Positions 3,624-64,000 of a DNA stretch of 64,000 nt are shown piece after piece. Source of the DNA: a virus; IMG/VR virus record IMGVR_UViG_3300042540_000949, positions 15,061-79,060 of that record; one strand, written 5' to 3'. The translations under genes and the position numbers were made by a program. Numbering within the stretch: position 1 is the stretch's first letter; each line of letters opens with the position of its first letter. Below the pieces are notes generated by a model. The model was not told where the DNA came from. It did no database searches and saw nothing but the letters and a program-made list of their open reading frames with translations.

Positions 3624-4204
3624 AAGGATTTTACGAAGTCGTCAACTGTTATAAGATTTAATAGTTTTGTTCTATTTAAATTAAAAAATTCATAATTTAA
3701 ATTGTAGGGGTCTTCTACGTCTATAAGATCTTGGTATCCTTCAGAGATTATACCACACCCGTAATCCGTATCAATGACTCTCATGTACAAATCTTTTCTT
3801 TCAGTTTTTAATTTGACCCAAGCTTTCCAACAATCTCCTGTCCATGGAGCCCCAGACATTGGTTCGGGATACCTTTGTACAAATTCATTGTAAGGATTCA
3901 TGTCGTGGCAAATAATATATCCATTTGTATTTAATATTTTTAAAGAATTTATTATATCAAAATATACTTGTTTGCACCAGTGCAAACCATCAATAAAGAT
4001 TATATCAAATTTTTCTGTATTTTGTTTAAAAAAATCATCGGATGTCATTTTAAACGAAACTGGAACACATGGATTTGGATCTACTGATATTTTATAATCA
4101 CAAACTATCGAATTAAAATTTATTCCGGGCCCCATTCCTATTTCTAGATAGGATTTAGCATTTATCTTGTTTATTAAACGTTGTATTATTTCTGTTCTTA
4201 ACAT
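3620..4204 (-). CDS. Class I SAM-dependent methyltransferase
   Basis: YLEIG, FDIIFIDGLH, GYIICHD motifs. Confidence 0.85.
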   Translation of the reverse strand: MLRTEIIQRLINKINAKSYLEIGMGPGINFNSIVCDYKISVDPNPCVPVSFKMTSDDFFKQNTEKFDIIFIDGLHWCKQVYFDIINSLKILNTNGYIICHDMNPYNEFVQRYPEPMSGAPWTGDCWKAWVKLKTERKDLYMRVIDTDYGCGIISEGYQDLIDVEDPYNLNYEFFNLNRTKLLNLITVDDFVKSL

Positions 4205-7773: not shown

Positions 7774-8372
7774 CTATTTTTTTTAAAAAAAGTATTATCT
7801 GTTTTATAACAAATTTCATAATTATTATTTTTTAAAACATTAACAGCAGTTTCATTTATATTTTCTACACAAATTAAATTTATTGTTATTTTATCAAAAT
7901 TTAATCCTAATATGACATTAGAATCATATGCTTCAGTATCTATGGATAGAAAATCAATATTTGTAATATTATGTTTTAACAACAATTCCGATGTATTATA
8001 AACATCAACTATATCTTCTACAAATGGACAATTAAACAATTTTTTACACAATAAATGTTGTTCATGACTAAAAGTTGAAATCTGTTCGTATTCGTCGTTT
8101 TTATCTATATAAAAAATTTGATTTAATTTTGTTTCTGATGAACAACCCACATTTTCTAAAATAATATTATTATTTAATGTGTATAAATTTTTTAATTTAT
8201 TATAATTTTTTTTATTTGGTTCTACTAATAATCCACTCCAACCTAATTCTATTAATTTTTTACTATTGGAATTATTAATACCATCGGCTGCGCCAATATC
8301 AACTAAAAATCCAGTATTATTATTTTTAAAATAATTTAATAAATAAATTTCTTCATAGCCTTGTGAATACAT
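7770..8372 (-). CDS. FkbM-family methyltransferase
   Basis: YSQ, VDIGAADG, SNS, GLLVEPN, IDFLSIDTE. Confidence 0.88.
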   Translation of the reverse strand: MYSQGYEEIYLLNYFKNNNTGFLVDIGAADGINNSNSKKLIELGWSGLLVEPNKKNYNKLKNLYTLNNNIILENVGCSSETKLNQIFYIDKNDEYEQISTFSHEQHLLCKKLFNCPFVEDIVDVYNTSELLLKHNITNIDFLSIDTEAYDSNVILGLNFDKITINLICVENINETAVNVLKNNNYEICYKTDNTFFKKNR

Positions 8373-40263: not shown

Positions 40264-40287
40264 AGTCCAACAACTACTATCAAAAAT

Positions 40288-53010: not shown

Positions 53011-53418
53011 ATGAAGATCCCCGCCCTGCTCATCCCGGCTGATATCACCCGCCCCATGACCACCGTGGAAATCGACACCGACTGCGGCAACCTCGCCTCG
53101 CTCATCGGCTGCGACCTCGTTACGGTTGTCCGTCCCTCCGCGTCCCTCCGCAACATGGTCGATGGCGACTGCACGGTGTGGGTCGATGACGAGGGGCTGC
53201 TGCGCGAGAACCCCCGTCAGAACATCCGGGCGTTCCTGATGACCGAGCAGCACCTCGTCGGCAATGCTCTCCTCACGGGCGTTGACAACGCAGCAGGCAC
53301 GATCACCCCGCTCCAGTTCGTGCTGCCTGCCTGCACCGTCCTGAACATCATCGAACAGAACGCGCAGGGGCTGCACCGCATCTATGCGGCCATCGACGCG
53401 GCCAACGCCAACGCTTGA
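53011..53418 (+). CDS. DUF3846-like early protein
   Basis: LIGC..V, WVDDEGLL, N..A, LVGNALL.G; promoter 52975-53003. Confidence 0.8.
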   Translation: MKIPALLIPADITRPMTTVEIDTDCGNLASLIGCDLVTVVRPSASLRNMVDGDCTVWVDDEGLLRENPRQNIRAFLMTEQHLVGNALLTGVDNAAGTITPLQFVLPACTVLNIIEQNAQGLHRIYAAIDAANANA

Positions 53419-53449: not shown

Positions 53450-53782
53450 ATGCACACCACCCGCTCCTCCATCGCCCTCCCCGTCGCCGCCAACACCGCC
53501 CGTCGCTACGACGAGGCCATGACCTACCTCGCCAACGGGTGGGTCGAGCTGACCTACCGCAAGGTGGGCGGCGAGGTGGTGACGCGCCTCGCCACGCGCA
53601 ACCCCACGCTCATCGACACCTTCGGTGATCGTTGGTCGCTTGAGGCGGTGCGGAAGTCCGACGATCCGTGGGGCGACAACATCGTCTACTGGGATCACGC
53701 AAAGGGCGGCATCCGCTCCTGCCGCGCCGACGAGGTCGTGGGCATGGCGATCCCCGGCGACTGCCCGGAGGTCAACCACTAA
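53450..53782 (+). CDS. WYL_2 (DUF2693)-like protein
   Basis: V.LTYRK..GE...R.ATRN, YWD..KGGIRSC; promoter 53415-53443. Confidence 0.75.
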   Translation: MHTTRSSIALPVAANTARRYDEAMTYLANGWVELTYRKVGGEVVTRLATRNPTLIDTFGDRWSLEAVRKSDDPWGDNIVYWDHAKGGIRSCRADEVVGMAIPGDCPEVNH

Positions 53783-55522: not shown

Positions 55523-55786
55523 ATGACAACCACCGCAATCAAGACCGCCCGTGAACTTCGCGCCTCCCTCTCCACGGGGGCCGTCTGCCTCGTCGCCTTC
55601 CGCAAGATCAGCGGCGAGATCACCGAGCGCTACATCACCCGCAATCAGGACTACATCCCCGAGGATGCGCGTCCGCAGTATGTGAAGGCCGAGAACCCCC
55701 ACTACATCACCGCATGGGATGTGGAGGGAAAGCATTGGATTTCCTTCCACGAATCGAACGCCCTCGCGTGGGAAGAGCATCAGTAA
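55523..55786 (+). CDS. WYL_2 (DUF2693)-like protein
   Basis: VAFRKISGE..ER..TRN...IP, AWDVEGKHWISF; promoter 55488-55516. Confidence 0.78.
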   Translation: MTTTAIKTARELRASLSTGAVCLVAFRKISGEITERYITRNQDYIPEDARPQYVKAENPHYITAWDVEGKHWISFHESNALAWEEHQ

Positions 55787-56297: not shown

Positions 56298-56522
56298 ATG
56301 CTATTCGACAAACTCAATCAGTCAGGGATTCACCGTGGCGTGTTCGCCGTCCTGCTTGGCATCATGTGGCTCATGCCCGTAGTGCTTGGATGGATCGCCT
56401 ACGAAGCTGCTCACCACCACATGAAGATCCTGCTTGGGTTCTGTGCGGTGGGATGCCTGCTTGAACTCTACGCGATCACCTTCCTGCTTGGGGGCCTGAA
56501 GTTCATTCGCTCACGGGCTTGA
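56298..56522 (+). CDS. Small two-TM membrane protein
   Basis: Promoter 56263-56291; hydrophobic segments. Confidence 0.7.
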   Translation: MLFDKLNQSGIHRGVFAVLLGIMWLMPVVLGWIAYEAAHHHMKILLGFCAVGCLLELYAITFLLGGLKFIRSRA

Positions 56523-56553
56523 CACATCCGGAAAGAAAGAATATAATCCGGAC

Positions 56554-56691
56554 ATGAACCACAGGCCGGCAAAGTTCGTACACGACGCCTTCCGCGAAGG
56601 GCAGCGGCTCCGCTCCAAGACTTGGGGAAAGAAGAGCCGCTGCCCTCGGAAGGACAGGCGCGAGGCACGGAAGGAGCTGCAGCGGGCCTGA
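56554..56691 (+). CDS. 45-aa basic peptide
   Basis: Manual ORF MNHRPAKFVHDAFREGQRLRSKTWGKKSRCPRKDRREARKELQRA behind TTGACA-17-TATAAT (56519-56547). Confidence 0.65.
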   Translation: MNHRPAKFVHDAFREGQRLRSKTWGKKSRCPRKDRREARKELQRA

Positions 56692-56835
56692 ACTACTATC
56701 AGGCGGCTCAGAACACTAGGATGGTACAAAGACCTTGGATGGTGCGGGGCCTGATAGTAGCTCCCCGCGACCTGGACGGCACTCAGCCGGTCATCGGACG
56801 GCACACAAAAACTTCAAAAACTTTGCCCATGTCAC
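56692..56835. repeat. Inverted-repeat module, copy 1
   Basis: CTACTATCAGGC 56693-56704 / GCCTGATAGTAG 56749-56760; ATCGGAC 56793. Confidence 0.8.
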
Positions 56836-56870
56836 TTGACGTATCCAGCTCTACCCCTTATACTACGCAC

Positions 56871-57083
56871 ATGGATCACACCCCCTACGACGATGCGACC
56901 GAGGAAATCACCCGAGAGGAGGCCATCCGTGAACTCATGGATGAAGGCTACTCGCGTGACGAGGCTACCCGCATGATCGGGGACTACGAGGCTGATGAGT
57001 ACGAGCCCAAGTACCTGTCGGACTTCCCCGATGAGTGGTCTGATGACATTGCCCTGTTCGTTGACCCGGAGGACTTCGAATGA
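56871..57083 (+). CDS. Highly acidic 70-aa protein (DNA-mimic candidate)
   Basis: 26 D/E versus 5 K/R; promoter 56836-56864. Confidence 0.72.
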   Translation: MDHTPYDDATEEITREEAIRELMDEGYSRDEATRMIGDYEADEYEPKYLSDFPDEWSDDIALFVDPEDFE

Positions 57084-57382
57084 TCTGCATTCGCATGAAG
57101 TACCTGCACACTCCAATCGCCAACCAAAGCTGGAAGCGCAGGCGTGAGCGGGAGATTCTTCGCATCGTGACGGGAGCCGTGGCATATGCGTTCGTGGCCC
57201 GTGACTTTCCCCGAACGGAGGCCCAGTTCGACTGCAAGCAAGGATTCGCCCTCACTTCCATCCGGGTGTTCGTGGACGGGATTGACGAGGAGATGGCCAA
57301 GCGTGTCGTGAACTACCTGAACAACAACAGGAATGTCTACGCAAACTACTTGACGCAACCCGAACTATGTGATACCATGTGA
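57080..57382 (+). CDS. Hypothetical protein
   Basis: ATGA coupling to the previous gene. Confidence 0.6.
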   Translation: MICIRMKYLHTPIANQSWKRRREREILRIVTGAVAYAFVARDFPRTEAQFDCKQGFALTSIRVFVDGIDEEMAKRVVNYLNNNRNVYANYLTQPELCDTM

Positions 57383-57384
57383 CC

Positions 57385-57615
57385 ATGCACCGACCCAAGA
57401 ACCCAACCACGACCAATGTGAGCGACCTCATCAATGCGATGTGGAAGTTCACGGACGAGAACCCGATGTGGTACGAGAACCGCGATCAGTTGTCGCGGGT
57501 GTCCGCAGCGTGGAGCATCCTCACCAAGATGTGCGAACCGCTTGACTTGACGGAGGAAGAGTACGCCTTCGTCACCGGAATCTTTGAGACTTGCAAGGAG
57601 AACGAACTGCCATGA
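57385..57615 (+). CDS. Hypothetical early protein
   Basis: Promoter 57350-57378, ATG 6 nt later. Confidence 0.68.
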   Translation: MHRPKNPTTTNVSDLINAMWKFTDENPMWYENRDQLSRVSAAWSILTKMCEPLDLTEEEYAFVTGIFETCKENELP

Positions 57616-57965
57616 ACCCGCAAAACGACTTCGACAACTTCTTCACGGACGAGAACCACCCCGCCATGAACTTGGCCAAGCCGACCCCGGAAGCGGTGTT
57701 GGAAGCCCTGATCCGGGTGGTGGGCCTGCGTCCCTTGTGGTACCGGGATCCGACCCTGCGCCTGATGGTCGTGAAGGGGCTGGACTTTCTGACGCAGGAA
57801 CTTCACGCTGCCCTTGAGCGTGGCGAGAAGCCCACCGTCGATCTGATCGGTGCAGCCTTCTGCATGGTGCTTGCGGAGAGGATCGAATCGTCCAAGCGAT
57901 TCGCCTCCCCGGAAGAGGAAAAGTGGTCGCCCAAGATGGACAATCACCCGCAGGACAACGAGTGA
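57612..57965 (+). CDS. Hypothetical protein
   Basis: ATGA coupling; GC3-biased frame. Confidence 0.65.
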   Translation: MNPQNDFDNFFTDENHPAMNLAKPTPEAVLEALIRVVGLRPLWYRDPTLRLMVVKGLDFLTQELHAALERGEKPTVDLIGAAFCMVLAERIESSKRFASPEEEKWSPKMDNHPQDNE

Positions 57966-58006
57966 CTTGACAGCACCGTGTCCCCCCGGTTATAATAGGG
58001 GGATGA

Positions 58007-58079
58007 GCCTCTGTGGCGCAGCTGGTAGCGCAGTAGACTTTTAATCTATTGGTCGTGGGTTCGAACCCCACCGGAGGCA
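58007..58079 (+). tRNA. tRNA-Lys(UUU)
   Basis: Acceptor GCCTCTG/CGGAGGC, anticodon loop CTTTTAA, GGTTCGAACC; no encoded CCA. Confidence 0.93.
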
Positions 58080-58081
58080 TT

Positions 58082-58609
58082 ATGAACGACGAGATCGAAC
58101 AACTCAAGAAGAAGATCGCCTACCTTGAGGAACAAGTAGACCGATGGGAAGATGATGTCCTGCGTCTGATGAAGGAACGCAACGAAGCACGGAAAGAGGT
58201 TTGCCTTTGGCAAGGACTTGATACAGGAAAAAAGTCCGAAGAAGTTGCTAATGTTCGTGGTTGGGATTGTTTCAACCAACCCAAAACAGAACAGGACAAG
58301 GCAATGGATCGCCTCGCAGAACTTGATGAGGAACTTGGTCTGAACCCCATTCCGGAATCTCACTACATCAAGACCCTTCAGGCATATGATCGCCTCGCCA
58401 TCGTCATGGAGGCCATCATGGAACATTGGTTGGAAGGCAATGCCAACCCACCGAAGGAACTCATCGATGCCTATTACGATGTCAAGGAGGACATCAACGA
58501 CCATCTGAACGTGGATCGTCTGCATGAGCAGGTGATCCCGGCGAACTCTGAATTTTACGACAAAATTCAGAAAAAGTTTTCTGTTGACGACACCCCGAAT
58601 CTGTGGTAG
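58082..58609 (+). CDS. Hypothetical coiled-coil protein
   Basis: ATG 2 nt after the tRNA-Lys discriminator; ERNEARKEVC..RGWDCF; stop TAG forms the next -10. Confidence 0.7.
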   Translation: MNDEIEQLKKKIAYLEEQVDRWEDDVLRLMKERNEARKEVCLWQGLDTGKKSEEVANVRGWDCFNQPKTEQDKAMDRLAELDEELGLNPIPESHYIKTLQAYDRLAIVMEAIMEHWLEGNANPPKELIDAYYDVKEDINDHLNVDRLHEQVIPANSEFYDKIQKKFSVDDTPNLW

Positions 58610-58619
58610 AATGTGTTAC

Positions 58620-58704
58620 GGGATTGTGGCGGAATCGGCATACGCAGCAGACTCAAAATCTGCCGACCCTTAAAGTCTTGTGGGTTCAAGTCCCACCAAT
58701 CCCA
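58620..58704 (+). tRNA. tRNA-Leu(CAA)
   Basis: Acceptor GGGATTG/CAATCCC, loop CTCAAAA, long variable arm, GGTTCAAGTCC. Confidence 0.93.
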
Positions 58705-58707
58705 TTT

Positions 58708-58781
58708 GTTCTCGTAGCTCAGTTGGATAGAGCAGCCGCCTTCTAAGCGGCAGGTCGTTGGTTCGAATCCAACCGGGAACG
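58708..58781 (+). tRNA. tRNA-Arg(UCU)
   Basis: Acceptor GTTCTCG/CGGGAAC, loop CTTCTAA, GGTTCGAATCC. Confidence 0.94.
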
Positions 58782-58817
58782 CTTGACAGACCCCGAAAGA
58801 CAGGATACAATACACCC

Positions 58818-58991
58818 ATGAGCAAGACCAAGACCAAGAACCAAACGATCTCTGAAAAGTTGACTCGCATCGATGATTATGTCTGCGACATCTGGAACGA
58901 TGTCGATGAAGGCAGGCTATCCCCGAATCAGATCGGGGATCGACTTGACAAGGTCATCAGGATGCTTGGCGAACTTCAGGATTCCCTGTGA
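58818..58991 (+). CDS. Hypothetical 57-aa protein
   Basis: Promoter 58783-58811, ATG 6 nt later. Confidence 0.68.
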   Translation: MSKTKTKNQTISEKLTRIDDYVCDIWNDVDEGRLSPNQIGDRLDKVIRMLGELQDSL

Positions 58992-59098
58992 GGACACACA
59001 TGAATATTATATAAGGAGTGTTTGGTGGAAACATCAAAAACCGCACAGAGGCATTCTGCGAATGCACGGTTGACCGCTAGCCGTACAACTAGCGATTC

Positions 59099-59174
59099 GG
59101 GAAGGTGGCTGAAAAGTAGTTAGAGCGCGTGCCTTATAAGCGCGAATATGTGGGTGCAACTCCCGCCCTTCCCA
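59099..59174 (+). tRNA. tRNA-Ile(UAU) with atypical T-loop
   Basis: Acceptor GGGAAGG/CCTTCCC+A, stem CGTGC/GCGCG, loop CTTATAA, T-loop TGCAACT. Confidence 0.78.
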
Positions 59175-59210
59175 TTTGACACAACCCCAAACAGAGAGTA
59201 GAATATAACC

Positions 59211-59510
59211 ATGCCAATCGCACTACCAAAAGAAGAATATCTCGCCCCGCAGATCTTCTCATCGTTCATGATCGAAAACAACGATCTCATCGTCCGCGTC
59301 GAAGAGCCCTTCGGCATCATTGAGATGGATCTGTCGTTTGCTGTCCGTCTGGATCCCAAGACTGGCTTGGCGTCCACGGACTCAGATGACATTCTCTTTT
59401 CCATTGCCGATGACTCGGAAGGCAATGAGCATGAGGTAGACCCGGATTGGGTTATGGGTTGGATCATCCGCACCCTGAACCCATACCTCCGCGAGAAGTT
59501 CTCCGTCTGA
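59211..59510 (+). CDS. Acidic hypothetical protein
   Basis: Promoter 59176-59204, ATG 6 nt later. Confidence 0.72.
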   Translation: MPIALPKEEYLAPQIFSSFMIENNDLIVRVEEPFGIIEMDLSFAVRLDPKTGLASTDSDDILFSIADDSEGNEHEVDPDWVMGWIIRTLNPYLREKFSV

Positions 59511-59548
59511 CACTTGACACAACCCCGAACAAGAGGTACAATACACAC

Positions 59549-59833
59549 ATGGAAATGACCTTCGACACATCTTACTTCGGTTGGATTCTCGCAGTCTCTT
59601 TCGGTCTGTACATGGTGTATCGCCACATCATGAACAGGATGCATGAACTTCAGCGTTCCCTCCACGACGATATGCGTGGGAACATGGAGTACGGCAAGGA
59701 GGAAATGGAGTTCATCCGCAATCGCATCGACGGCATTGAGCGCAGGATCTCCACCCTTGAGGTGGCTCCCAAGCCGCAGAGCAAGGACAAGGCTCCCTAC
59801 AACTCAACCGCCTACTACAACACGGAAGCCTGA
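59549..59833 (+). CDS. Protein with N-terminal TM segment and coiled coil
   Basis: Promoter 59514-59542; YFGWILAVSFGLYMVY. Confidence 0.72.
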   Translation: MEMTFDTSYFGWILAVSFGLYMVYRHIMNRMHELQRSLHDDMRGNMEYGKEEMEFIRNRIDGIERRISTLEVAPKPQSKDKAPYNSTAYYNTEA

Positions 59834-59859
59834 CCCGCTACCAGGCTTCCTCTCATAAC

Positions 59860-59896
59860 CAGGGACTCCCACGCTTCGGGGAGTCCCTGTTCTTTT
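59860..59896 (+). terminator. Intrinsic terminator
   Basis: CAGGGACTCCC...GGGAGTCCCTG-TTCTTTT. Confidence 0.85.
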
Positions 59897-59906
59897 ATAT
59901 TCTTTT

Positions 59907-60060
59907 ACTACTATCAGCCAGCCTTAAGGCTGGCTGATCTTTCGCATGGACGGCAAGGACAATAATAATATTCTGAGTTGATTGATAGTAGCTCTGGGAC
60001 TTGGGACCTGGTGCCGGTTATCGGACGCAAAACAATCTTCAAAAATATCGAAGAAGTTTG
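59907..60060. repeat. Inverted-repeat module, copy 2
   Basis: ACTACTATCA 59907 / TGATAGTAG 59983-59991; 26-bp perfect palindrome 59913-59938; ATCGGAC 60020. Confidence 0.8.
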
Positions 60061-60095
60061 TTGCAGCATCCCCGGAAATGTCGTACCATATGCGT

Positions 60096-61370
60096 ATGAG
60101 CAACATCGACAACCGTAAGGCAAACTTCCTCGCAGCCCTGAAGCAGATCGCAGGCGAAGCGACCAGCGTGGCCGATGCCATCTTCAGCCGTGACGATTGC
60201 ATCACCGCCTGCCGTGACTCCGCTGCGCCTGCCTACACCGTCCTTCCTGCTTGGCTCGTCCAAGACCCGTCCCGCCGCGCAGGTCGCGGCCTATACAGAA
60301 TCCCGGAAATGGTTTCCGTGGAAATCGAAACGGACGGGATGGAAGATTCGTCCGAAAGTTCCTTGACCGATCCCCAAACTTGTGATACCATTACGAACAT
60401 GAGCAGCAGCAACTACAACCTCGTCGCATCCATGCCCGATGTCTCCCTCGTCCCGATGAAGAACGACACTTTCGTTCCGTGGGGCCACTACGATGACATC
60501 AGCACCATCCTCGCGTCCAAGCAGTTCGCGCCCGTCTACATCACGGGTCTGTCGGGCAACGGCAAGACCACGATGATCGAACAGATCTGCGCCAACACCG
60601 GGCGTGAGTGCATCCGCGTCAACATCACTGCCGAAACCGACGAGGACGATCTCATCGGCGGCTTCCGACTCATCAACGGCGAAACCAAGTTCGTCTACGG
60701 TGGCGTGGTTCAGGCCATGCAGCGCGGTGCCGTCCTGCTGTTGGACGAGATCGACTTGGGGACGGAGCGGATGATGTGCCTTCAGCCCGTGCTTGAGGGC
60801 AAGGGAATCTTCATCAAGAAGATCGGCGTTTTCGTCAAGCCCGCGCAGGGGTTCAATGTGGTCGCCACGGCCAACACGAAGGGCAAGGGCGAGTCTGATC
60901 GGTTCGTCGGCACCCGCTGCTTGAACGAGGCGTTCGTGGATCGGTTCTCCTATTGGTTTGAGCAGGAGTACGCGGATCGCAACATCGAAGCGCGCATCAT
61001 CATCCGCAAGATGAAGGCGTATGGCAAGGAGGACAAGGAGTTCGCGCAGTACCTCGTCAAGTGGGCGGAAACGATCCGCTTGGGCTTCAAGGAGGGCGGC
61101 TTGGATGACATCATCACGACCCGCCGCTTGGAGGAGGTCTGCAAGGCGTTCGCCATCTTCAACGACAAGCAGAAGGCGATCAAGTTGACGCTCACGCGAT
61201 TCGACGGTGCTACGCAGGAGGCGTTCTTCACCCTCTACACCAAGATCGACCCGACGATCCTCCCGACCCCGGAGGGGATGGACAAGAACAACCTCGGCCC
61301 GTCCGAAGCCTATCGTGCAGAGCAGGCGAATCAGAATCCGCCTGACACCAACTACGCCCTCAACGCCTAA
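60096..61370 (+). CDS. MoxR/CobS-like AAA+ ATPase with an N-terminal accessory domain
   Basis: GLSGNGKT, RVNIT.ETDEDDLIGG, LLLDEID, ATANTKG.G, NEAFVDRF, TRRL; promoter 60061-60089. Confidence 0.92.
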   Translation: MSNIDNRKANFLAALKQIAGEATSVADAIFSRDDCITACRDSAAPAYTVLPAWLVQDPSRRAGRGLYRIPEMVSVEIETDGMEDSSESSLTDPQTCDTITNMSSSNYNLVASMPDVSLVPMKNDTFVPWGHYDDISTILASKQFAPVYITGLSGNGKTTMIEQICANTGRECIRVNITAETDEDDLIGGFRLINGETKFVYGGVVQAMQRGAVLLLDEIDLGTERMMCLQPVLEGKGIFIKKIGVFVKPAQGFNVVATANTKGKGESDRFVGTRCLNEAFVDRFSYWFEQEYADRNIEARIIIRKMKAYGKEDKEFAQYLVKWAETIRLGFKEGGLDDIITTRRLEEVCKAFAIFNDKQKAIKLTLTRFDGATQEAFFTLYTKIDPTILPTPEGMDKNNLGPSEAYRAEQANQNPPDTNYALNA

Positions 61371-61388
61371 AGAAAGGAGGAACCAACA

Positions 61389-61616
61389 ATGCCGTACATG
61401 AACAAGCGCAATCGTTTCATCGCTGCTGCCAAGCAGTACGCAGAGGCAAACCTGAACGGAGACTTCAGCAACTTCAAGAAGTCCGATCTCATGGTTGTGG
61501 CACAGTCCATCAACATGAAGGGAATCCCGACTTGGGTTGTCAAGGAGTACGCGAGTGCCGTGAGCCGTGGGATCTACGATCTCTCGTCGCTCATCAACAA
61601 CACCGCAACCGTCTGA
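61389..61616 (+). CDS. Stand-alone paralog of the AAA+ N-terminal domain
   Basis: NKRNRFIAAAKQ...IPTWVV...SRGIYDL versus NRKANFLAALKQ...LPAWLV...GRGLYRI; AAGGAGG SD. Confidence 0.75.
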   Translation: MPYMNKRNRFIAAAKQYAEANLNGDFSNFKKSDLMVVAQSINMKGIPTWVVKEYASAVSRGIYDLSSLINNTATV

Positions 61617-61677
61617 GCTGTTGCCATGAGGGGAGGGGCGGACTAAACATCCCCCCTCCCCATTCGCAGGAATAAAA

Positions 61678-61765
61678 TCCGTTGGAGCTAAACTACACCC
61701 TCTGGGTGACGGCTAGCCTAATGCTCCCGAAATGCTTGGTGTTCTGCAGCACCAGGTTGAACGGA
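61678..61765 (+). ncRNA. Candidate multi-stem structured RNA
   Basis: TCCGTT/AACGGA enclosing GGAGC/GCTCC, CACCC-TCT-GGGTG and TGGTG/CACCA. Confidence 0.35.
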
Positions 61766-61783
61766 AAGGAACGGAGCCTTTCC

Positions 61784-61809
61784 CCCCGGATTCTTATCCG
61801 GGGTTTTTT
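61784..61809 (+). terminator. Intrinsic terminator
   Basis: CCCCGGA-TTCTTA-TCCGGGG-TTTTTT. Confidence 0.85.
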
Positions 61810-61812
61810 ATT

Positions 61813-61965
61813 ACTACTATCAGCGGGTCTCTAAGGACCCGCTGATTCTCGCAGGACACGAAATAATTTTAAGGACGCTCCCTGATAGTAGCTCGTACCT
61901 GCGCCTGGAGTTGCCGGCCAGCTTATCGGACTCACAAAAAAACTTGTAAACTTCGACTATGTGGG
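61813..61965. repeat. Inverted-repeat module, copy 3
   Basis: ACTACTATCAG 61813 / CTGATAGTAG 61882-61891; inner stem 61819-61846; ATCGGAC 61925. Confidence 0.8.
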
Positions 61966-62000
61966 TTGCAGCTTCCCCCGATATGTGCTACCATATGCGT

Positions 62001-64000
62001 ATGAACACCTCTCTCTCCATCTTTGCCCGTGCCCTCGCAAGCGAGAACCTGACCTTCGCGTTCGACCCGAAAGCGGAGACTGCTTCGTTCGATGTCAAGG
62101 CGCGGCACCTCGTCATGCCCATGTGGGATGTCTCCGACACCCTCCGCACCATGCTCGTCGCGCATGAGATCAGCCACGCGCTGTGGACTCCCTACGAGGT
62201 GTCCAACCGTCTGTTTGAGGCGGCGACCGCAGAGGGATACAACGAGAAGTTGCTGCACCACATCTGCAACATGATTGAGGATGTCCGCATCGAAAAGTTG
62301 ATGAAGGTGAAGTACCCCGGTACGCGCCGCGACTTCTTCTTGGGCTACCGCGAGATCATCGACAAGAATCTTTTCAACCTTTCCGGGTTGGATTGGAACA
62401 AGGTGGACATGATCTCCCGTCTGAACGGCCACTTCAAGTGGGGCGTTCCGGGCTTCCTCACCATCCCGCTGACCGACGAGGAGCGGGACATTGCCGAATT
62501 GGTGGACGGGGTTGAAACCTTTGAGCAGGCGTTTGAACTTGCCAAGTTCCTCTACGGCCACCCGTCGATGGAGAAGGCGCGTCAGCGGTTTGAGGCGGAA
62601 GCGCAGGACATTGGGAACGGCAAGGGCAAGGGCAAGGGCGACGAGGAGGGTGAGACTCAAGAGGGTGACGGTGGCACCGACCTGACCAACATGGGCGGCG
62701 CGTTTGCCCGGAAGAACGGCGAGACTGTCACCATCGACAACATCACGATCAGCCCCCTCGCTGACTTCGGCAAAGCGATCATCAGCGCGGACAAGATCCG
62801 CGAGAACTACGGGCGCATCTACAACCACATGAACCGCAACATCGACCTTGACGGCTACCGCAAGTATGTCAAGGAGTCCGATGCGTTCGTCCGTCAGTTG
62901 GTCGCGCAGTTTGAGCGCCGCAAGGCAGCGGACGAGATCCGCCGTGAGCGCCCCAAGCAGACGGGGATGCTCAACCTTGACCGCCTGCACCAGTACCGCA
63001 CCCACGATGACATCTTCCTCTCCAAGATCATCAAGCAGGACGGGAAGAACCACGGCATCATGTTCCTCATCGACTTCTCCGGGTCGATGGGATCAACCAT
63101 CGGCAATTGCATCCATCAGGTGTTGCAGTTGGTGTGGTTCTGCGAGAAGGCCAAGATCCCGTTTGAGGTCTACGGCTTCACGAACCTCGGGCATTGGGGC
63201 TTTGAGGCGCAGATGGAAGCGGAGCGCAAGGCGTACATGGACGCGAACCCGGATGACACTTGGGGCAACGGCTTCCGCAGCCCGACCGTGAACCTCGTCG
63301 CCATGAACCCCAAGCCCAACAGCATCCACTACGGGGATGCGCGGCTCATCAACCTCGCATCGTCGCGTGACTCCGCTGCGGATCGGGAGCGCCTGTTGGC
63401 CTGCTTGTGGGAGCAGTATTGCGCGGGTACTGGTGTCTGCTGCATTCCCTTCGGTGGCACTCCGACCGTGGAATCCGTTGCCATCGTCAGTCAGGTGATG
63501 AAGAAGTGGGTGGAGGCGAACGACATTCAGATCCCGACCCTGATGGTCGTTACCGATGGTCAGCCCGGTGGGATCTACACGGAAGATCGTTCCTGCTGCC
63601 ATGCGTTCATCAACAGCAACCACGGGCTCTGCGTCACCAACGAAATCTTCGGGACGGTTCACTACTCCGATGGTTCCGCCAACGAGATCGACATTCCCAA
63701 CGCCATCATCGGCACCATGCTTGACTCCCTGCGGACGGGATTGAACGCCCGCTGCGTCGGAATGTATGTGGATCACTCCCGCAAACTTTCGGAGCATATG
63801 TTCCGTTCCATGTGCGTCACCCGCAAGGAGTACCGGGAGCAGATGAACAGCCGCCAGTACGCATACGATTCGATTGACGAAAGCCCCCGCTACGAGGCGT
63901 GTTCGGAGCAGTACGAAAGCGGTGCGCTGATCCTGCCCAAGTCCACCTACCCCGGATACGATGCGTACTTCCTCATCCGCAGCATGAAGGCGGTGAGCGA
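62001..64000 (+). CDS. CobT-like metallopeptidase/VWA-domain protein (partial, runs off window end)
   Basis: Manual translation MNTSLSIFARALASENL...HEISHALWTP...N.IEDVRIE...IDFSGSM (MIDAS)...GGTP...TDG; promoter 61966-61994; missing from ORF track. Confidence 0.9.
   Translation, partial: MNTSLSIFARALASENLTFAFDPKAETASFDVKARHLVMPMWDVSDTLRTMLVAHEISHALWTPYEVSNRLFEAATAEGYNEKLLHHICNMIEDVRIEKLMKVKYPGTRRDFFLGYREIIDKNLFNLSGLDWNKVDMISRLNGHFKWGVPGFLTIPLTDEERDIAELVDGVETFEQAFELAKFLYGHPSMEKARQRFEAEAQDIGNGKGKGKGDEEGETQEGDGGTDLTNMGGAFARKNGETVTIDNITISPLADFGKAIISADKIRENYGRIYNHMNRNIDLDGYRKYVKESDAFVRQLVAQFERRKAADEIRRERPKQTGMLNLDRLHQYRTHDDIFLSKIIKQDGKNHGIMFLIDFSGSMGSTIGNCIHQVLQLVWFCEKAKIPFEVYGFTNLGHWGFEAQMEAERKAYMDANPDDTWGNGFRSPTVNLVAMNPKPNSIHYGDARLINLASSRDSAADRERLLACLWEQYCAGTGVCCIPFGGTPTVESVAIVSQVMKKWVEANDIQIPTLMVVTDGQPGGIYTEDRSCCHAFINSNHGLCVTNEIFGTVHYSDGSANEIDIPNAIIGTMLDSLRTGLNARCVGMYVDHSRKLSEHMFRSMCVTRKEYREQMNSRQYAYDSIDESPRYEACSEQYESGALILPKSTYPGYDAYFLIRSMKAVS

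Follow-up and report, generated by a model that had tools for sequence, protein, structure and literature searches.

The stretch of DNA analyzed here (the window) is the terminal 64 kilobases (kb) of the 79,060-base-pair (bp) IMG/VR contig IMGVR_UViG_3300042540_000949, and its early region carries three copies of a non-coding unit in which a conserved 8-bp box and its inverted copy are followed by a third, promoter-phased box, an A-tract and a sigma70-type promoter. In our judgment there is about an even chance that these units are boundary-and-restart cassettes between early transcription units, of the kind known as promoter-early stem-loop (PeSL), which also provide exchange joints and are recognized by a putative reader. 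The initial annotation of the window had proposed an unrecognised cis-acting module. A genuine and selected module was indeed found, syntenic in about 20 related contigs and with a covarying inner stem, but its general kind had already been described (PMC2839356, PMC4122927).

Direct reading of positions 56400-62400 recovered the three units at 56692, 59907 and 61813 with the order of motifs that had been annotated. The left box ACTACTATCAG is present in all three copies, and the right box, (C/T)TGATAGTAG, lies at 56751, 59982 and 61882. The ATCGGAC motif, whose box form is (T/C)TATCGGAC, ends 36, 34 and 34 nucleotides (nt) before the -35 element, as had been measured. Across the family described below, the order of elements is a terminator, the core CTACTATC, a palindrome starting from inside this box, often a T-run and a first TTATNGGAC, the inverted core GATAGTAG, GGAC-type repeats, the TTATNGGAC box, an A-tract resembling an UP element, the sigma70-type promoter and a leaderless ATG. 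The parts of the window units are as follows.

56692-56702, + strand: left box of copy 1, core CTACTATC at 56693-56700, right after the stop codon of a gene for a basic protein of 45 amino acids (aa)
56751-56760, + strand: right box of copy 1, CTGATAGTAG, core GATAGTAG at 56753-56760
56791-56799, + strand: TCATCGGAC box of copy 1, 36 nt before the -35, followed by an A-rich tract at about 56804-56823
56836-56873, + strand: promoter of copy 1, TTGACG-17-TATACT, with leaderless ATG at 56871 for an acidic 70-aa protein
59860-59906, + strand: predicted intrinsic terminator upstream of copy 2, 11-bp stem at 59860-59889 and T-rich tail
59907-59917, + strand: left box of copy 2, core at 59908-59915
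59913-59938, + strand: perfect 26-bp palindrome of copy 2, 11-bp stem and TTAA centre, starting within the left box at ATCAG
59982-59991, + strand: right box of copy 2, TTGATAGTAG, core at 59984-59991
60018-60026, + strand: TTATCGGAC box of copy 2, 34 nt before the -35, followed by A-rich tracts at about 60029-60050
60061-60098, + strand: promoter of copy 2, TTGCAG-17-TACCAT, with leaderless ATG at 60096
60096-61370, + strand: AAA+ ATPase gene (AAA_5 domain)
61784-61812, + strand: predicted intrinsic terminator upstream of copy 3, 8-bp stem at 61784-61803 and T-run
61813-61823, + strand: left box of copy 3, core at 61814-61821
61819-61846, + strand: inner palindrome of copy 3, 12-bp stem and 4-nt loop
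61882-61891, + strand: right box of copy 3, CTGATAGTAG, core at 61884-61891
61923-61931, + strand: TTATCGGAC box of copy 3, 34 nt before the -35, followed by an A-tract at about 61934-61950
61966-62003, + strand: promoter of copy 3, TTGCAG-17-TACCAT, with leaderless ATG at 62001 of a VWA-type protein gene that continues past the contig end

The inner stems that had been reported for copies 2 and 3 were both present, the one in copy 3 measuring 12 bp rather than 11. They had also been said to exclude pairing between the two boxes. Only five nucleotides are common to both pairings, so that the exclusion is not complete, and the minimum-energy single-strand fold contains both: the three window copies fold into an outer stem and a shortened inner hairpin at -28.0 to -28.3 kcal/mol (z -2.8 to -3.6). 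No palindrome was found in the interior of copy 1 (56703-56750), and no terminator upstream of it; it is therefore regarded as a degenerate copy, its counterparts in two relatives having a normal hairpin. Just upstream, within the basic-protein gene, lies a 13-bp perfect inverted repeat with a 23-nt spacer (56598-56646). Copies 2 and 3 sit between a terminator and a promoter, as annotated; the early region has just two strong terminators predicted on its + strand, one directly ahead of each of these copies.

The boxes stand well above background. The 10-mer ACTACTATCA, with at most one mismatch, was matched 10 times against 2.9 expected, a count reached in 0 of 100 shuffles, and the paired-box pattern was found three times in forward orientation in the whole 79-kb record and not at all in the control. 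The lone half-site annotated at 40273 is at chance level: outside the early region, 52 kb would be expected to contain about 1.6 exact 8-mers, and 2 were seen; stray box matches in relatives are scattered likewise. Among the early-region 8-mers, GATAGTAG (67-fold) and CTACTATC (43-fold) are the two most over-represented, followed by GTTATCGG (31-fold) and the GGACAGGA/CTGGACGG family (about 11-fold).

The initial annotation had named a lack of conservation in relatives as a refutation; conservation was found, at syntenic sites. A pattern scan first gave the same word pair in two other viral contigs, and a search with the AAA+ protein gave 21 related loci with 38-87% identity. In these related viral contigs, about 20 in number, the module was found in at least 18 loci as 58 distinct copies, with 3-7 per genome. 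It stands at four syntenic places in at least 12 of the 21 AAA+ loci: upstream of the operon of small acidic proteins (copy 1 of the window), upstream of the AAA+ gene and on either side of the VWA gene. The window contig stops short of the fourth place, about 450 nt beyond which the relatives have a fifth conserved site consisting of a lone left box, repeated in direct tandem about 11 nt apart in two phages. Longer contigs carry two or three further modules upstream. Exact boxes are confined to one 10-12-kb segment, which holds 7 of 12 matches in G001 (a related 135.8-kb contig), 13 of 14 in G003 and 14 of 16 in G005. A strict pattern (box, 17-20 nt, CTGAT, 2-32 nt, box) gave 21 matches on 14 viral contigs, 11 of which were already-known relatives, and none in 596 Gbp of prokaryote genomes (one genome each for 185,579 species), which led us to reject a host transcription-factor site. 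A looser palindromic pattern, with 16 specified bases and 31 gap lengths, mostly returned chance matches in viral contigs, and only loci with several hits were used. No module was found in more distant AAA+ relatives (47-53% identity), which have Shine-Dalgarno leaders, no match was obtained by megablast of the region against 50,697 phage records, and a literature search for the box words returned primer matches only.

Two further observations were made beyond the VWA gene. A hairpin follows this gene at the same place in all relatives (5268-5300 in L006, the locus of G001), with a covarying stem and a conserved, Shine-Dalgarno-like 10-nt loop, AAGGAGAGAG. Past the fourth module, L006 5380-6200 is part of about 1 kb without open reading frames (ORFs), dense in TTATCGGAC-type words in both orientations and also holding CTGGAC(A/G)GGAT repeats (GGA motifs of the CAGGAT type), promoters and AT-rich stretches; it may be an origin-like or a non-coding RNA region.

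As for the inner palindrome, a stem of at least 8 bp starting inside the left box occurs in 53 of the 58 modules, with loops of mostly 3-4 nt, and is exactly 12 bp long in 33. Its base is AT-rich (ATCAG/CTGAT), the hairpin energies range from -13 to -31 kcal/mol, and the start is most frequently directly after CTACT (offset 5, 28/53). The stems comprise 51 different sequences, yet pairing is kept. Indeed, with a covariance model built from 30 copies, which gave 53 matches, 96.8% of the cells were paired versus 67.9% in shuffles and at most 50% when the partner was slid by 1-3 columns; the alignment being fitted to the model, these figures lean towards structure, although the slide control is clear. 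Double changes were found at 9 of the 12 pairs, in 182 cells versus 45 in shuffles (0 of 500 as high). Orthologous palindromes diverge stepwise through compensatory changes. Conserved inverted termini around an interior that varies in sequence while its pairing is conserved are also features of integron attC sites and Correia-type repeats. In the lake modules, however, the interior is palindromic only in part, no integrase or transposase is present, the sites are syntenic and the boxes would function independently of a partner.

Whether the boxes are the arms of a stem or words read in double-stranded DNA was assessed from the bases around them. The cores CTACTATC and GATAGTAG are invariant by construction of the search, so that only their extension is informative. 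In the 58 modules, complementarity beyond the core decays from 48/58 at position 9 (about 35 expected) to 36/58 at position 10 and 14/58, which is chance, at position 11. Within one genome, the right boxes tend to carry the same bases on their inner side irrespective of the left box (CGG in L009, L014 and L103, TTG in L011), while those of the left box invariably pair with the palindrome's near arm. In the relative L012, the left box and the palindrome are missing at three sites, where instead the right box occurs in two or three direct copies spaced 12-18 nt apart (1000-1030, 3820-3855 and 7915-7960); no module precedes the VWA gene of this relative. Because of these direct repeats, of the lone boxes, and of a complementarity that decays past the core and is not kept when one side changes, the boxes appear to behave as duplex DNA words rather than as RNA stem arms. 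Pairing between boxes is possible but would not be required across the family.

The same data bear on an RNA element, in which the boxes would pair on a read-through transcript and form, with the inner hairpin, a forked structure acting as a processing, stability or termination-switch signal. The outer stem of the single-strand folds, the excess of complementarity at position 9, the covariation of the inner hairpin and the T-run, which is frequent and lies on the transcribed strand only, are all in line with this idea. However, the outer core never covaries, being invariant, positions 10 and 11 do not follow position 9, the direct-repeat modules of L012 and the lone boxes cannot pair, and the right box lies downstream of the terminator that it would have to influence. 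Moreover, G-U pairs are almost absent and Rfam offers no match: at gathering score only four tRNAs were found in the window, and at E<=1 nothing covers a module, a weak anti-hemB match (61725-61811) falling just upstream of copy 3. Since efficient-looking terminators precede the modules, little RNA should reach them. An RNA-level role is thus considered doubtful, less likely than the DNA-level alternatives discussed below, and the minus-strand RNA that had also been envisaged found no support. The Rfam match that the initial annotation had held as a possible refutation did not apply, nor did a match to a miniature inverted-repeat transposable element (MITE).

The boxes were also compared with known signals. 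A late promoter of the gp55 type was rejected because the boxes are absent near structural genes, a sigma70 promoter with TACTAT as its -10 because no -35 lies at the right spacing, and a DnaA box because only TTATC is in common. A reading of TGATAGTAG as triple stop codons was rejected, since they fall in one frame alone and no ORF enters it. The stem sequences vary, which does not fit an N4-type hairpin promoter, and no virion RNA polymerase gene was identified, although none was searched for. Parts of the stretch are present, as assembled contigs, in 16 DNA and 4 RNA-labelled public runs, four of which were compared. All loci with an assigned orientation have their modules pointing in one direction relative to transcription, a stem of at least 8 bp was found from the upstream box in 53 of the 58 modules, and no strand-changing joint was found in the assembled contigs of the four runs; together with spacers of 25-94 bp, very short for synapsis, this led to the rejection of an invertible switch (inverton). 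Operator or iteron arrays offer a further likeness. The omega heptads of plasmid pSM19035, for instance, are operator arrays read in either orientation by a small repressor, and here too a short word occurs inverted, direct or single upstream of several promoters of one replicon. In contrast to such arrays, the lake words are 25-94 bp apart, unphased and flank a palindrome, and no ribbon-helix-helix protein or other reader was found.

The module had been described as lying at a fixed distance from its promoter. This holds for the TTATNGGAC box, which is phased with the promoter in two registers, but not for the inverted boxes, which lie unphased 29-101 nt from the -35. The gap between the TTATNGGAC box and the -35 is 23-27 nt in 14 modules (exactly 23 in nine) and 33-36 nt in nine others; the box thus sits on one helical face, in two registers about one turn apart, centred near -63 and -74. 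The A-tract always follows the phased box, and on the + strand of the window the TTATNGGAC box is found only at the three modules. Class I activator sites have a similar geometry, with CAP binding at -61.5 and -72.5. The TTATNGGAC box and A-tract resemble such an upstream activator site combined with an UP element, but the word matches no known regulator and is also found often directly after the palindrome and, in relatives, clustered downstream of the fourth module. The promoters themselves have the form TTGACN-17-TANNNT. Those of the AAA+ and VWA genes share TTGCAG...TACCATATGCGTATGA, as annotated, with 79% identity over 48 nt. Within the AAA+ gene itself (60363-60401), TTGACC-17-TACCAT makes up another complete cassette promoter. 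It comes with an ATG in frame at 60399, from which a 323-aa isoform lacking the N-terminal domain is predicted; G001 is arranged likewise (L006, about 1565-1612).

The closest known system is PeSL, a repeated intergenic unit made of a stem-loop terminator, an AT-rich tract and a sigma70-like early promoter, with modular shuffling and mini-circles formed between neighbouring copies (PMC2839356, PMC4122927). It is known in the T4-type phages RB49/phi1, T4/PST and KVP40/nt-1 (Arbiol et al., 2010, PMC2839356; Comeau et al., 2014, PMC4122927). Both occur in T4-type phages as intergenic composites in which a stable stem-loop and AT-rich sequence are joined to a strong early promoter of sigma70-like type; in both, the repeats belong to the variable early part of the genome, at least about 100 bp of them being conserved, and are associated with rearrangement joints and with signs of exchange between copies. 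However, the lake cassette has two stem-loops where PeSL has one, the second being a perfect palindrome of almost constant length, clamped between an invariant 8-bp box on one side and the inverted form on the other, and it adds the helically phased TTATNGGAC box. It leads into a leaderless ATG whereas PeSL provides a Shine-Dalgarno site, it serves only 3-7 of at least 20 early promoters, and its AAA+ and VWA copies are syntenically fixed whereas PeSL is hyperplastic. The lake cassette would have all the sequence-level features of PeSL, the differences being the box-palindrome-box clamp, the phased box, the leaderless start, the restriction to few boundaries and the synteny.

Signs of exchange between copies are seen in several places. 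In the L020 module, the upstream gene is near-identical to that of L016 while the interior is identical from box to box to that of L019, the upstream flank of which is unrelated. Upstream of module 1, the genes are ordered differently from phage to phage and the joints coincide with modules. The basic-protein gene, for example, is adjacent to a module in the window and in both G003 and G005, but in G003 three genes and one more module separate it from the acidic-protein operon. In addition, the AAA+ and VWA promoters resemble each other within a genome (mean 0.53, and 0.79 in the window, where both carry a private TTGCAG/TACCATATGCGT) more than orthologous promoters do between genomes (0.43-0.44). 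From this mosaic, the shuffled order at joints and the within-genome likeness, copies appear to exchange sequence. With such exchange seen at the left box, the units might be selfish MITE-like elements, or linkers that serve recombination and regulate nothing; they are 55-100 bp long, end in inverted repeats of 8-11 bp and number several in each genome, all of which would suit such a role. But the flanks are not direct duplicates, so that no target-site duplication is seen, the interiors are unrelated between copies, no transposase is present, the orientation is constant, and the positions, confined to one 10-12-kb region, remain syntenic down to about 71% AAA+ identity. A MITE was rejected on these grounds, and we regard a selfish or purely linking role as very improbable.

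As to how a cassette of the PeSL kind would work, about 22 predicted early promoters share a region with only two strong predicted + strand terminators, placed directly before copies 2 and 3. The hairpins could stop or attenuate read-through from the many upstream promoters. The phased TTATNGGAC box and the A-tract would then act, by way of RNA polymerase or an activator, on how strongly or when the restart promoter fires, and the two 8-bp boxes may be duplex-DNA recognition sites for a putative sequence-specific protein acting at the boundary. Finally, the repeated cassettes may double as joints for homologous exchange, as described for PeSL.

Several results weigh against this reading. First, the modules flanking the AAA+ and VWA genes keep their place in every relative; being syntenically fixed, they would not have shuffling as their main role. 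Second, a T-rich tail (at least 5 T in 10 nt) follows only 26 of the 53 palindromes and is seldom present in the modules upstream of the AAA+ and VWA genes, so that termination cannot explain the palindrome everywhere. Third, the palindromes do not resemble the adjoining terminators when one stem finder is applied to both: the terminators have stems of 8-18 bp with 488 Watson-Crick pairs, 47 G-T pairs and 8 mismatches, whereas the palindromes have 626 Watson-Crick pairs, 11 G-T pairs and no mismatch (G-T pairs 11/637 versus 47/535, or 9%; Fisher p = 2e-8). This scarcity of G-T pairs and the near-fixed length point to a constraint that would act on both DNA strands and that this reading does not cover. 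Fourth, in one RNA run contigs cover genes only, and none covers a module. Fifth, no DNA-binding Pfam domain was detected in 22 neighbouring proteins and no box-binding protein was identified. The folds of a 75-aa protein encoded between the AAA+ and VWA genes and of the AAA+ N-terminal domain gave only middling helix-turn-helix or winged-helix-like matches (Z 5-6), those of the 75-aa protein being mixed with EF-hands.

Regarding this 75-aa protein (61389-61616), it is a free-standing paralogue of the AAA+ N-terminal domain (60096-60320), with P-x-W and R-G-x-Y in common, and is highly conserved in all relatives. Its AlphaFold model is a small helical domain with a predicted local distance difference test (pLDDT) value of 78 and weak Foldseek matches, and the protein atlas returned only hypothetical viral clusters. 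When the box variants (CGG, CTG or TTG before ATAGTAG) were compared by eye with its residues, no tracking was seen. The very basic protein of 45-50 aa whose gene (56554-56691 in the window, 5790-5942 in L141) ends directly at a module left box in the window, G003 and G005 is a possible nucleic-acid binder.

Because the palindrome is nearly free of G-T pairs, fixed in length and in half of the cases without a T-run, two DNA-level alternatives to the boundary-and-restart cassette were retained. In one of them, the palindrome would extrude as a cruciform, or fold in single-stranded DNA during replication or recombination, and be read together with the boxes by a structure-specific factor, the element being a hot spot for recombination or replication initiation, or a supercoil-sensitive insulator upstream of strong promoters. 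The 12-bp stems closed by short loops and devoid of mismatches, and the signs of exchange at the modules, are consistent with it, and AT-rich flanks located 100-150 bp upstream of strong promoters would favour extrusion. Nevertheless, the three sites of L012 and copy 1 of the window keep boxes without a palindrome, and perfect stems could also come from templated quasi-palindrome correction or from strong selection on an RNA hairpin. This element is considered improbable, ranking above an RNA-level role and below the other alternative, programmed nicking.

In the latter, a phage nicking enzyme would recognize the boxes and cut at the foot of the palindrome, on the top strand for the left box and on the bottom strand for the right one, so that nicks or staggered breaks punctuate the early units. 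Localized single-strand interruption sites are known in T5/BF23, phiKMV-like and LUZ24-like/tf phages (PMC3517423); like the boxes, they are short, phage-specific, strictly conserved words present in a handful of copies. The box TACTATCAG agrees at 7 of 9 positions with the LUZ24-like nick word TACT/ATGAC (tf consensus TACT/RTGMC, PMC3517423), a likeness to be taken as a lead only, and the palindrome mostly begins after CTACT, where a tf-type cut would fall. Near-absent G-T pairs suggest that both strands must fold, and the box is present in either orientation and alone. On the other hand, the known words are on one strand only (PMC3517423), are not paired around palindromes and are not tied to terminator-promoter junctions, whereas the boxes occur in both orientations in nearly every module and in one in L012. 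Contig ends do not speak for cutting either. At the modules they fall on different bases (59909, 59938, 59949 and 61824) and not at one bond, and of about 12 IMG/VR contig ends in the region none is inside a box, the nearest being 9, 64, 90 and 108 nt away. Contigs from three independent runs (X1 and X2, DNA; X18, RNA) share an end at 61364, a position immediately ahead of the AAA+ stop codon that has no box; it is probably a boundary between strain-variable and conserved sequence in assembly graphs, as branching among co-existing strains can give such ends. Coincident contig ends therefore cannot be read as molecule ends. No nickase gene was identified here either. Overall, nicking is considered rather unlikely.

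More broadly, a dedicated phage enzyme may bind or cut the invariant boxes where they adjoin the base of the perfect palindrome, a possibility that is also considered unlikely. If cutting took place, paired nicks on opposite strands, or fold-back ends, would make each boundary between early units a programmed DNA-structure switch. Such a switch could be a topological insulator, an entry site for clamp loading or recombination, or a protein-gated terminator, a mechanism that is not known in T4-type phages.

Whatever its mechanism, the cassette stands alone as a conserved extra signal of the early region, where the AAA+ and VWA genes are each flanked by copies of it. Words kept so strictly would imply one or more sequence-specific readers, and a fixed-length palindrome free of G-T pairs a constraint beyond ordinary termination. 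It could thus provide an experimental handle on the insulation and timing of early units in an abundant uncultured phage group, and bears on the question left open in the PeSL papers of whether such repeats are passive patches of homology or sites for active enzymes. Its parts could also serve as compact insulator-promoter units.

The contig derives from a T4-like myovirus, the portal, the major head protein, TerL and a helicase matching T4-type profiles in a profile search, and its gp23 is 53% identical to cyanomyovirus gp23. Near-identical DNA is present in lake-water metagenomes from many studies. The phage is taken as an uncultured lake T4-like virus, one member of a clade, and the completeness of the contig is estimated at 44%. 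G+C content in the window is 25-32% at 1-12 kb, 35-45% at 12-52 kb and 57-60% at 52-64 kb, the jump at about 52 kb coinciding with the start of the array of leaderless early promoters. We nonetheless take the contig as not chimeric, because a 1065-aa protein encoded in the AT-rich part has a full-length homologue with 49% identity on G001, which also carries modules. The 126-kb contig G005 has ends, L142 and L143, that overlap inside a module, which is consistent with a circularly permuted genome assembled as a circle.

In the early region, about 22 promoters are close to the consensus TTGACA-17-TAcAAT. Their transcripts are predicted to be leaderless because, at almost all of them, an ATG lies 6-7 nt past the -10. 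The region also contains four tRNA genes, a DUF3846 protein gene (53011-53418) and two genes for paralogous small early proteins (53450-53782 and 55523-55786) matching the WYL_2 family, an Sm-like SH3 barrel. The order of the DUF3846 and WYL_2 genes relative to the modules varies among phages.

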